A stretch of DNA of 3,083 nucleotides, taken from the NCBI RefSeq assembly GCF_054482595.1, contig NZ_JBTHVH010000002.1, one strand, 5' to 3'. This document shows, piece by piece, positions 439 through 3,083 of the stretch. The number at the start of each line of letters is the position of its first letter. Within the stretch, counting starts at the first letter, position 1. Both the position numbers and the translations under genes were made by a program. The DNA comes from a plasmid. Under the pieces are notes generated by a model. It was not told where the DNA came from, made no database searches, and was given only the letters and a program-made list of their open reading frames with translations.

Positions 439-1010
439 CCTGTTAGTGATACGGAGTGCATCAGAGAACAGGAAGCAGGAGATCAAGATAGTAGCATGTG
501 CATAAAATACAAACCCGTGAGTTATTGATATCGCGTTTATATATTAAAAATATAACTTAACATTGCTCTTAATATTTATTTTGCCCTCGCAATGGGTGCA
601 TTAATCCCCGTGCAGCGCTCCGCCAGCTGCTGACGGCCTCGACATGCAACCGTCAATGCGATAAAAGATCGGGGTGCGTTTCCGGCAACAACTAACCATA
701 GGGATGGTTTGCGTGCCGACAAACGCCGGAAACGCGCCTCAAATCCACCAAGCCGCCACGGTTCCGGCAGCGCCTTGAGCGCAACCGGAAACCGACTGGG
801 GAGAACCCCAGACCCCCACCGCTGCAACATCATCGGTCTGCGACCGCCTACCAACCGAGCGACTGCCTGTACCGTGCAAACGGGCTTTGCAGGGGCTGGC
901 GCGGTTCCTGGCGACCTGAAAGCCCCTGGTTAGGGGTATCGGCGCGCCTGGCCTCCTGAAACCCTCTGTAAGCGTTTTTCGCGCCTTCCATGCCCTGGGG
1001 GGCATTTAAA
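439..1010 (+). ncRNA. ColE1-family pre-primer RNA II (ends approximate)
   Basis: ORF-free GC-rich stretch of about 570 nt between the -10 at 427-432 and the G6 run (997-1002) plus A-rich transition (TTTAAAACCC, about 1005-1014). This is the pBR322 geometry (RNA II about 555 nt; G6 then GGAAAAACGCC at the RNA/DNA switch). The six-frame ORFs here are Arg/Pro-rich with no ribosome-binding site. Confidence 0.5.
441..549 (-). ncRNA. Predicted antisense RNA I (copy-number control); position inferred from the ColE1 paradigm only
   Basis: In ColE1 replicons RNA I is antisense to the first ~110 nt of RNA II. I could not identify its promoter or its three stem-loops with confidence, so the coordinates are placed by analogy, not by sequence match. 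Confidence 0.2.
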
Positions 1011-1015
1011 ACCCG
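997..1015 (+). other. ColE1-type origin core: G6 run and A-rich RNA-to-DNA transition
   Basis: CCCTGGGGGGCATTTAAAACCC resembles pBR322 TCAGGGGGGCGGAGCCTATGGAAAAACGCC, the G-run and A-run that flank the RNase H processing site. Comparison is from memory of pBR322. Confidence 0.45.
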
Positions 1016-1059
1016 TTTCGTGCGTCTGAGAGCTTCTGAGCGCGTTTGAAGGGCTATCT

Positions 1060-1215
1060 GGCGACTCATCCCTGAAAGAAAAACAACGGGATCACCGACA
1101 ACATGCGAGAGATGACACCGCTCGCCGCAGCCCTAGCGACCGAACGTAGTGAGCGAGTGGGCGAGGAAGCGGAAGAGAACTGGAAGGTACATTTGGCTCT
1201 TACGCACTTCCGTAA
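1060..1215 (+). other. Ori-distal conserved segment with primosome assembly site (n'-pas / ssi-like)
   Basis: TCATCCCTGA...GATGACACCGCTCGCCGCAGCC...GTGAGCGAG...GAGGAAGCGGAAGAG...CTCTTACGCAC parallels pBR322/pUC TTATCCCCTGA...GATACCGCTCGCCGCAGCC...GTGAGCGAGGAAGCGGAAGAG...CTCCTTACGCAT. The GAAGCGG heptamer (1166-1172) is, as I remember it, the conserved PriA/n' recognition motif. Confidence 0.6.
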
Positions 1216-1278
1216 AGAACTAAGAAGAGGGTATCGCGGAAGCCGCGAAAAATGGGGATCCAATTTTCAGATCATGTG

Positions 1279-1369
1279 AGACGGTCTATCAGACGTCATC
1301 AGACCGTCTATCAAAAAACACGTTGATTTTGATAGACCGCGAATCTAAAGTTGAATCTTGTCTATCAAA
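1279..1369. repeat. Iteron/operator cluster, consensus AGAC(C/G)GTCTATCA, three direct copies and one inverted copy
   Basis: AGACGGTCTATCA at 1279-1291; AGACCGTCTATCA at 1301-1313; GTCTATCA at 1362-1369; inverted TGATAGACCG at 1331-1340; a degenerate copy AGACGTCATCA at 1291-1301. The first two copies are 22 bp apart and each contains the 9-bp palindrome AGAC-N-GTCT. The cluster sits immediately upstream of the winged-helix gene. Confidence 0.65.
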
Positions 1370-1382
1370 AAAAGGTTTAATT

Positions 1383-1913
1383 ATGATAAACGGTCGATAC
1401 AAAACTAACCCTTTTTTGGAAGGTATGATAGTGCCCGTCAAGGGTAAACAAGTCAGACTTTCCCGTCTAGGTCGTGATGAAAACATACTGGTTAATCAGA
1501 ACACGGGAGAGGTTCAAGGCACCCATGTAACAACATATAAACGGGTTGATGGTGAGCAGTTTGTAAAACTATTCACTGCAAATATCGCGTTAACCTTTGA
1601 TTTGTCAGCTCAAGGAATAAAAGCATTTAACGTTTTGATGTGGGCAATACAAAAGCAGTCAGTATCAAAAGACGAAGTTTATTTAGATACTCACACAAGA
1701 GAGGAGTTTCTTGCTATTTATAATGATAAAGATAAACCAATTAAATTAAGTCAGCCAACATTTGCTAGAGGATTAGCTGAACTTACAAAAGCTCAAATTA
1801 TAGCTAAAACCATACGTCAAGGAGTGTATTGGATAAATCCAAATTTTGCATTCAACGGTGATAGAATCGCGTTTACAACTCTTATTGAAAGGCAAGGTAA
1901 TAGTGAAAAATAA
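1383..1913 (+). CDS. Small winged-helix DNA-binding protein, putative iteron-binding replication/maintenance protein (RepL-like; assignment tentative)
   Basis: Same frame as track ORF 1323-1913. ATG 1383 has AAGG 7 nt upstream; alternative starts are ATG 1425 and GTG 1431 (GGAAGG 7 nt upstream). Stop TAA at 1911-1913. The C-terminus has a helix-turn-helix plus beta-wing signature (QPTFARGLAELTKAQIIAKTIRQGVYWINPNFAFNGDR) and the N-half has a GEV...FVK pattern I recall from RepL. Direct repeats upstream fit an autoregulated iteron-binding protein. Confidence 0.65.
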   Translation: MINGRYKTNPFLEGMIVPVKGKQVRLSRLGRDENILVNQNTGEVQGTHVTTYKRVDGEQFVKLFTANIALTFDLSAQGIKAFNVLMWAIQKQSVSKDEVYLDTHTREEFLAIYNDKDKPIKLSQPTFARGLAELTKAQIIAKTIRQGVYWINPNFAFNGDRIAFTTLIERQGNSEK

Positions 1914-1926
1914 CAGGGTAAAAACA

Positions 1927-2715
1927 ATGAGAAAAAAGAATATGTTTCCGCCAGGATCTTTGAGTATAAAATTAAATAAACCTTTAACTAAATATGAAAT
2001 AATTGAGATATTGTCAGAATACCTCTCGATGTTAGAAATAACTTTTAGGATAAAAGAATTCCGGCTTTTCTCTTATTTGGAATGCGTGCTTAATGGAGAA
2101 AAGCAGGCTATATACCATAAAGATAATAACACAATCGTGTCTGGATTTTTACTTGATTCAATGAGGAGTACAAACAACAGAAAAATCAATAAGATACTGT
2201 TAGGCGGTGATGATTTTGATGCCATGGAAAAAATCGATGACATGTTAAATATGAAAGCAGAATCCAATCCGTATGAATATTTTAAGAGTTTTTTATCACT
2301 AGTTCCTGCTAATATTGCATATGATCTCATCAGGAAAACTGAAGAGTTAATCGAACTTGAGAGAGTGGAAAGGATAAAAGAAAAAATCGAATTGCGTGAA
2401 AAAAAGCTAGAAAAAGATAAAAACATATTAAAGGTTATTTATAACAATAAGATTGCTGAGTATTCATGTACTTTTGATTATTTTAGATCTGTATATTTGT
2501 CTAGCTCTGGTTTTTTATCTTTAGAAAAACAAAAGGCTAAATATTTTCTTGCGGAAGGGTTGGGTTCACTATTGAAGGATTATGTTGGTAAAAGGTTGGT
2601 AAGATTATCAATTAAAGGCGATGATGGTAAAGTCTCCATAGTCGAAATATATGATGAAAATGGTAGATTTTTATTTAAGACAAAACCTCTAAATAAATCA
2701 CAGAGTAATCTTTAA
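1927..2715 (+). CDS. Hypothetical protein (262 aa), AT-rich, with a highly charged E/K-rich central helix; function unknown
   Basis: ATG 1927 lies 14 nt after the upstream stop, with AGGG 8-9 nt upstream. The track ORF start at 1846 would overlap the upstream gene out of frame and is unlikely. Stop TAA at 2713-2715. Residues ~134-169 (nt 2326-2433, DLIRKTEELIELERVERIKEKIELREKKLEKDKN) look like a charged helix or coiled coil. No Walker, HEPN, PD-(D/E)xK or polymerase motifs seen by eye. Confidence 0.75.
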   Translation: MRKKNMFPPGSLSIKLNKPLTKYEIIEILSEYLSMLEITFRIKEFRLFSYLECVLNGEKQAIYHKDNNTIVSGFLLDSMRSTNNRKINKILLGGDDFDAMEKIDDMLNMKAESNPYEYFKSFLSLVPANIAYDLIRKTEELIELERVERIKEKIELREKKLEKDKNILKVIYNNKIAEYSCTFDYFRSVYLSSSGFLSLEKQKAKYFLAEGLGSLLKDYVGKRLVRLSIKGDDGKVSIVEIYDENGRFLFKTKPLNKSQSNL

Positions 2716-2723
2716 TATGCTTC

Positions 2724-2756
2724 AGCCGATATACCAAATAAGACAGGATATCGGCT
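2724..2756. terminator. Intergenic hairpin between convergent genes (candidate bidirectional terminator)
   Basis: Perfect 9-bp inverted repeat AGCCGATAT (2724-2732) / ATATCGGCT (2748-2756) with a 15-nt loop, in the 46-bp gap between the stops at 2715 (+) and 2762 (-). The loop is long and there is no clean U-tract, so it is a weak intrinsic terminator. Confidence 0.3.
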
Positions 2757-2761
2757 AATAT

Positions 2762-3083
2762 TTATCTGTCGAATAAGTTAGAGCCTGGGTATTTATTTTT
2801 GTGCTCTCTTTTTATTATTTTTATTTCCTCTATTATTAAATCCATCTCTTTATAAATATTTGAAATTTTCTGTGTTATCTCTTTCATTTCAGTACAGAGT
2901 GAAATTATTTTATGCATCACCTCTAGGTACTCTTTATCATTCGGACTCATCCCTTTATCAAATAATTTTTTCTGCATCCGACCAAGTTGTATTAATTCAT
3001 CTAGATATCTAGAAGGCACGCGCTGTTTTATTTCATTATTTAAACTTACTGTCCTTATATACTCTGAGATTGTCAGCCCTTCG
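2762..3083 (-). CDS. Hypothetical protein, 5'-partial (frame open to the window edge), AT-rich; function unknown
   Basis: Track ORF 2762-3019 begins at a GTG with no ribosome-binding site. The same frame has no stop for 21 more codons to position 3083 (…EGLTISEYIRTVSLNNEIKQR-VPSRYLDEL…), so the true start probably lies beyond the window. Stop TAA (plus-strand TTA 2762-2764). Convergent with the 1927-2715 gene. Confidence 0.5.
   Translation of the reverse strand, partial: EGLTISEYIRTVSLNNEIKQRVPSRYLDELIQLGRMQKKLFDKGMSPNDKEYLEVMHKIISLCTEMKEITQKISNIYKEMDLIIEEIKIIKREHKNKYPGSNLFDR

Follow-up and report, generated by a model that had tools for sequence, protein, structure and literature searches.

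What a gene of no recognisable kind is doing beside a DNA-binding gene on a small mobile replicon, and whether the two form a unit at all, is the question raised by a 3,083-bp stretch of Escherichia coli plasmid DNA (NZ_JBTHVH010000002.1; the whole stretch is called the window here). The window is a complete circular plasmid, 99.9% identical over its full length by megablast to pLH10-b-1-j (NZ_CP100540.1), a plasmid of replicon type Col(MG828) from poultry faeces, whose record lists three genes by the Prokaryotic Genome Annotation Pipeline (PGAP), namely RepL, a hypothetical protein and a NikA-like MobA (window position = pLH10-b-1-j record position + 1325). The initial annotation took positions 1279-2715 to be a two-gene cassette, acquired as a unit from a source low in guanine plus cytosine (GC) and perhaps serving defence, abortive infection or addiction. 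We find that the first of the two genes (gene 1, repL) is recognisable as the plasmid's own replication initiator and that the second (gene 2) belongs to a tiny family whose members stand behind RepL-type initiators on plasmids and on chromosomal islands. For gene 2 we tentatively favor a non-essential accessory role in replication or maintenance, with expression tied to that of the initiator.

The product of gene 1 matches the Pfam family RepL over residues 35-174 of 176 (independent E-value 6.1e-7) and is named RepL by PGAP (WP_032188789.1). With this match and with cognate iterons in front of it, the gene belongs to the core replicon; what had been described as a generic small DNA-binding regulator is evidently the plasmid's RepL initiator rather than an accessory. 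Relatives were found in 200 plasmid records from Proteobacteria and Bacteroidota, many of them minimal plasmids with RepL and a Mob gene, and the existence of plasmids reduced to these two genes is an indirect pointer to replication driven by RepL. The RepL proteins of other small plasmids are 53-91% identical to gene 1, with values of 67% for pBGR2 of Bartonella grahamii and 73% for pEC21Z147-3K-3. The ratio of nonsynonymous to synonymous substitution rates (dN/dS) was 0.05-0.27 for gene 1 in pairs that include the window and 0.04-0.27 for initiators overall, or 0.04-0.13 without the least diverged pair.

The part of the supposed cassette that precedes repL (1279-1382) is non-coding and carries four exact copies of GTCTATCA, all within 84 bp (1284-1367), against 0.09 expected; none of 200 shuffled sequences reached four. 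The copies are spaced by 22 and 54 nt, and a further copy, degenerate and inverted (GTTTATCA, 1384-1391), lies over the repL start codon. Locus L007, with a RepL 95% identical to that of the window, has the same repeats in the same layout; in pLAO21 (L010, 974-1089), where RepL is 71% identical, another repeat, GGTAGCTCA, keeps the 22-nt and 54-nt spacings, and its last copy again lies across the start codon. The repeat sequence thus covaries with the initiator at a fixed geometry, as expected of iterons or operators, and the pattern looks like a co-evolution of specificity between initiator and iteron. The longer initiator found in some of the islands described below has repeats of its own, four CTATGTTCGAACATAG palindromes with a 22-23-nt spacing (L016, 9031-9117). 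A scan for sigma-70 promoters returned four sites against 8.8 expected, and the sole site on the plus strand overlaps the repL start codon.

The second gene lies on the same strand as repL, as first described, at a distance of 13 nt from its ATG at 1927 instead of the 14 bp that had been given. PGAP starts the gene at GTG 1903 (270 amino acids, with an 11-nt overlap with repL); we favor ATG 1927 from the alignment of homologs and from the position of the Shine-Dalgarno sequence (AGGGT, 8 nt upstream of this ATG), and every copy of gene 2 is preceded by such a sequence. Values of dN/dS were 0.16-0.20 in pairs that include the window and 0.09-0.27 over ten pairs, or ~0.2 where dS is unsaturated, which mark it as a gene under purifying selection; conservation across the family also supports both repL and gene 2 as real genes. 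The features of the locus are collected in Table 1.

Table 1. Features of the plasmid, in window coordinates.
Feature	Position	Strand	Description and basis
repL, RepL-family replication initiator	1383-1913	+	176 amino acids, isoelectric point 9.6; Pfam PF05732 and PGAP
Gene 2, orphan initiator-linked protein	1927-2715	+	262 amino acids, isoelectric point 9.1; family alignments
Putative iteron/operator array	1284-1391		Exact GTCTATCA at 1284(+), 1306(+), 1330(-), 1360(+)
Hairpin	2724-2756		Lies where the 3' ends of gene 2 and mobA converge; stem AGCCGATAT / ATATCGGCT
mobA (NikA-like ribbon-helix-helix relaxosome accessory)	2762-3083 and 1-107, across the window ends	-	PGAP, 1437-1865 in record coordinates; outside the module
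GC-rich non-coding block	601-1270		59% GC; context, outside the module

That the gene 2 product is "unrecognisable" held in every sequence and fold search tried. Neither the single sequence nor five divergent members nor profiles of the family matched anything in Pfam, NCBIfam, PADLOC, PHROGs or the PDB sequences; no helix-turn-helix family matched any member; a structural search with the AlphaFold model recovered no relative outside the family itself; and a search of the literature found nothing on the protein. The literature on pIGRK and pHW126 was considered and set aside, these being of a different replicon family. The family is tiny and restricted to Enterobacterales. At 90% identity it makes up 5 clusters out of 5.8 billion; at 50% identity, a full hidden Markov model scan of 1.84 billion proteins gave 18 representatives; a broader profile gave 13 proteins; and the family is present in 5 of 100,044 species-representative genomes and on 3 IMG/VR contigs. 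Its hosts are Escherichia, Klebsiella, Citrobacter, Salmonella, Pluralibacter, Pectobacterium, Brenneria and Affinibrenneria. Of 5,426 complete E. coli genomes, 9 contain the plasmid type of gene 2, each time on a plasmid of 2.9-3.9 kb. A 3.8-kb contig (L020, JAEYGZ010000029.1) binned in a metagenome-assembled genome of a "Bacillota bacterium" carries the enterobacterial island pair of initiator and gene 2, and is probably mis-binned rather than a genuine extension of the host range.

What sets gene 2 apart is its position. In 22 of 22 other loci (those fetched with enough sequence upstream of gene 2, the window excluded), an initiator open reading frame on the same strand ends between 14 nt of overlap with the gene 2 start and 30 nt in front of it, and homologs down to 25-35% identity still lie directly behind an initiator gene, on plasmids as well as on chromosomal islands. 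The initial annotation had asked whether the pair recurs in other neighborhoods; it does, and this part of the earlier idea survives.

The loci fall into two contexts. One is that of the Col(MG828)-type plasmids, of 2.6-4.1 kb. The other is a set of chromosomal islands, often beside a tRNA gene, with a P4-type integrase, DUF6387, AlpA, an H-NS-like protein, DUF4756 and a MobA/MobL relaxase, where the order of genes is initiator, gene 2, DUF4756 and H-NS-like. These islands look like integrative mobilizable elements and are apparently a previously undescribed family of them; a paper on PIMEs (bioRxiv 10.64898/2026.01.12.698999) was examined as a possible description and rejected, as it deals with other islands. 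Several of them (L011, in the chromosome of E. coli A28, L016-L018 and L012) also carry EcsC and, in places, TraD, BfpA or CcdAB. In E. coli the island adjoins tRNA-Ser/mtfA and is present in ~3% of complete genomes, including that of enteropathogenic E. coli E2348/69. The first distant match to gene 2 came from a PLSDB entry (L009, NZ_OL790696.1) filed as an "unnamed plasmid," which at 4.8 Mb is evidently an E. coli chromosome.

Two kinds of gene precede gene 2: a short RepL of 176-189 amino acids, or a winged-helix protein of 244-265 amino acids. The latter is named RepL by PGAP and has weak matches in Pfam (HTH_36, 1e-4; RepL, 2e-3; DnaD_N, 0.02), and a comparison of profiles of the short and long forms gave one weak match, around the recognition helix; on the naming and the Pfam matches, the long form may be called RepL-like. 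Between the window and island L012, RepL is 38% and gene 2 36% identical, from which it follows that the two diverged together. Between L012 (7435-8792) and L015 (29-1576), gene 2 is 83% identical while the initiators, a RepL of 189 amino acids and a winged-helix protein of 245, cannot be aligned, so that here the initiator was replaced and gene 2 kept. The same set of 5,426 genomes includes 183 with the island initiator and 174 with the island gene 2. Typical island copies of gene 2 are intact at 263 amino acids; some are broken, by truncation or by a stop, as in A28 and E2348/69.

It is this near-invariant operon position over two types of element, together with the exchange of the initiator and the near 1:1 co-occurrence in the islands, that leads us to favor, with less than even confidence, a non-essential accessory of replication or maintenance. 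We would picture its working as follows. RepL, as a winged-helix initiator, would bind the GTCTATCA repeats that precede and overlap the start codon of its gene, and this binding would fire the origin and probably also repress the repL promoter, as the layout and the covariation of iterons with RepL suggest. Gene 2 would be co-transcribed with repL, to judge from three features: the two genes lie close together, gene 2 has its own ribosome-binding site, and a hairpin comes only after gene 2. Its product, predicted to be cytoplasmic and basic, may modulate the activity of the initiator or the copy number, or may aid establishment and stability after transfer or excision.

The predicted structure gives this protein a definite shape. 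The AlphaFold2 model reached a mean predicted local distance difference test score (pLDDT) of 84.3 with an alignment of 21 sequences, which were needed, as an alignment of 6 gave only 37. It has an N-terminal domain (~10-70) of a helix and an antiparallel sheet, a middle part with helices at 96-121 and then a 52-residue helix at 128-179, and a C-terminal alpha/beta domain at 183-251; no signal of an internal duplication was seen between the N- and C-terminal domains. In the model, the two domains are bridged by the long amphipathic helix, and because of this arrangement the protein is probably a dimer. With rather less assurance than we attach to the accessory role, we suggest that gene 2 could found an undescribed class of initiator-coupled proteins, with a fold without known relatives, that tune or protect the replication of their element on RepL-type replicons of enterobacteria, whether small plasmids or integrative mobilizable islands; such proteins might, for example, control the activity of the initiator or interfere with a competing or helper replicon.

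Several observations weigh against an accessory role in replication. Only 6 of ~200 RepL-bearing plasmid records contain gene 2; pLAO21, which has it, and pEC21Z147-3K-3, which does not, carry RepL proteins that are 91% identical; and a 2,461-bp plasmid with the same backbone of mobA and GC-rich block, with a RepL 53% identical, is likewise without it, ~80 bp replacing all that lies in the window between the repL stop and ~2778. As such close RepL plasmids exist without gene 2, it is clearly dispensable for RepL replication, and the unit that varies among sister plasmids is gene 2 with its hairpin and not the pair. A 4,237-bp RepL plasmid has unrelated cargo downstream of repL (a regulator and an EexN lipoprotein), so that the adjacency of gene 2, judged on plasmids alone, could be positional. 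The window and L007 form a mosaic, with RepL 95% and gene 2 only 70% identical, which implies recombination between RepL and gene 2 too. At nonsynonymous sites gene 2 evolves ~4 times faster than RepL, which would also fit a gene shaped by conflict. A single gene 2 homolog has no open reading frame abutting its start: its locus, on a 998-bp contig (L013; P0010, 33% identical), has stops in all three frames across its 211 nt upstream of gene 2 and is a possible exception to the synteny with the initiator. Finally, no biochemical clue ties gene 2 to DNA or to the replisome, its predicted folds being generic helix-plus-sheet domains.

Much of this can be turned into an argument for the strongest competing explanation, which we regard as rather unlikely: gene 2 would be a conflict or cargo gene that uses the rep operon to be expressed whenever the element replicates, be it for single-gene phage defence or abortive infection, for anti-defence, for exclusion or to interfere with replicons that are competitors or helpers. 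A gene of this kind could well be dispensable and patchy among near-identical RepL plasmids, faster-evolving than RepL and mosaic relative to it, rare and taxonomically narrow, and truncated or interrupted by a stop in some islands; exclusion-type cargo does sit at the same place in other RepL plasmids, and known reservoirs of immune systems include integrative mobilizable elements (bioRxiv 10.64898/2026.01.12.698999). Against this, PADLOC-DB v2 gave no defence family for either window protein, and of five divergent homologs of gene 2 four had no match and the fifth a single chance-level, non-significant one (E 0.026); scans of domain libraries found no nuclease, NTPase, transmembrane or toxin domain in gene 2; and dN/dS of ~0.2 gives no overall sign of positive selection. 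Turnover at a hotspot is the normal behavior of defence cargo, whereas gene 2 is fixed to the 3' end of the initiator over two element types and through an initiator swap, and is nearly 1:1 with the island initiator. The module for defence, abortive infection or addiction that was first envisaged for the pair has no match in any defence, abortive-infection or toxin-antitoxin family, and nothing in the evidence points to gene 2 by itself acting in defence or exclusion.

The order of the two genes brings to mind an essential replication partner, an adaptor that recruits or loads the helicase. In phage lambda, the gene of the iteron-binding initiator O is followed immediately, in the same operon, by that of P, which is essential and binds DnaB. 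The tightly coupled order of initiator and then partner is the same here and is kept across divergent initiators, the near 1:1 co-occurrence with the long-form initiator in islands is what such a partnership would produce, and the long initiator has a weak DnaD_N-like similarity. A further likeness is that the modules are mosaic, the specificity of the initiator being exchangeable while the partner stays. Unlike lambda P, gene 2 is evidently dispensable and has no sequence or fold similarity to solved replication proteins, and in our searches it bore no likeness to any solved member of the helicase loaders and replication adaptors (lambda P, DnaC, DnaD-like). Contradicted both by the plasmids that lack gene 2 and by the fold searches, an essential role is improbable.

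There remains the idea of a cassette delivered whole. Both genes are indeed AT-rich beside a GC-rich block, as the initial annotation observed, with 36% GC for gene 1 and 30% for gene 2. The rest of the plasmid is no different (mobA 31%, the intergenic stretch 108-600 36%, the iteron region 36%), and low GC therefore cannot delimit a two-gene unit; the compositional outlier is the GC-rich block and not the gene pair. That the pair is a toxin-antitoxin, addiction or similar self-contained cassette from a low-GC donor is most improbable, for although two AT-rich neighbors that share an orientation on a small plasmid and are found together elsewhere have that appearance, gene 1 is by all signs the replicon's RepL with cognate iterons, proteins of 176 and 262 amino acids without toxin or antitoxin domains (and, for gene 2, without any Pfam or NCBIfam domain) fit poorly, the AT-richness extends to the rest of the plasmid, and in sister plasmids repL is kept and only gene 2 is missing.

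The arrangement can be set beside other known systems. The small cryptic plasmids of the RepL type (PF05732; pBGR2 and Col(MG828)-typed E. coli plasmids of 2.2-2.6 kb) share the minimal layout of an initiator, upstream repeats and a Mob gene; they differ in having RepL alone, with no gene 2 behind repL. Par of the staphylococcal plasmid pSK1 is a single coiled-coil stability protein with an N-terminal helix-turn-helix, encoded divergently from rep. Like gene 2, it is of ~250 amino acids with a long central helix, lies beside rep and is non-essential; gene 2 differs from it in having no helix-turn-helix signal, in its place downstream in the same operon and in having no demonstrated centromere. 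In phage P1, an initiator also named RepL is co-transcribed with KilA, a non-essential protein of ~266 amino acids whose gene comes first. The likeness lies in a RepL-named initiator (P1 RepL: PMC9948254) with a second, non-essential protein; the gene order is reversed, however, the KilA-N domain is detectable by Pfam while gene 2 has no such match, and oriL of P1 lies inside repL instead of in iterons upstream of the gene.

For the islands, a parallel comes from PIMEs and SGI1, which have been reported to replicate after excision by means of replication modules of their own, repA-oriV in the case of PIMEs (bioRxiv 10.64898/2026.01.12.698999). The islands with gene 2 carry an integrase, AlpA and a relaxase and have their own iteron-flanked initiator. 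PIMEs and SGI1 use initiators of the RepA/RepC type and no partner like gene 2 has been described for them, whereas the gene 2 islands have RepL-like winged-helix initiators and a MobA/MobL relaxase. Their replication modules offer a rationale for the presence of an initiator module inside the gene 2 islands.

E. coli commonly carries small Col-type plasmids and integrative mobilizable islands, and the workings of RepL-type replicons are poorly understood. A gene that follows the initiator through transitions between plasmid and island, and through an exchange of the initiator itself, and yet is optional, could serve as a handle on how replication is regulated or safeguarded, and a natural plasmid of 3 kb is an easy experimental system. 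The attractive picture of a defence or addiction cassette has to be corrected, since half of the pair is simply the replicon; what remains new is modestly interesting, a confidently folded and selectively maintained family without relatives that shadows RepL-type initiators.

As for the rest of the plasmid, the hairpin behind gene 2 folds as RNA with -14.3 kcal/mol (z -2.4; 2 of 200 shuffles equalled it) and was overlooked by a simple terminator scan because its loop exceeds 8 nt; it probably acts as a terminator in both directions and closes the operon of repL and gene 2. The product of mobA matches the NCBIfam model MobA with an E-value of 1.9e-9, under the curated cut-off. The plasmid has mobA without a relaxase, and the MOB-suite verdict is "non-mobilizable"; any transfer would thus require a relaxase in trans. 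Sister plasmids of 2,310 bp, built on the mobA and GC-block backbone as well, were considered as carriers of the same RepL and rejected, as their "RepL" (165 amino acids; L004, 446-943) has no similarity by BLASTP to that of the window; the backbone therefore pairs with at least two unrelated initiators.

The GC-rich block is a separately shared module. ColE1-type plasmids have a nearly identical copy of a 62-bp core (~1117-1178), ~300 bp from rop, and this core may resemble the region of the primosome assembly site that follows the pMB1/ColE1 origin on its downstream side. No Rfam RNA family matched anywhere in the window, by a search in which RNAI was absent, at the gathering score, from a ColE1-like comparator as well. 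As pBGR2, with its RepL 67% identical, is not among the megablast matches to the block, RepL does not seem to depend on it. Positions 747-1208 of the block are ~91% identical to Col(MG828) plasmids of ~1.5 kb, which encode a small helix-turn-helix protein only.

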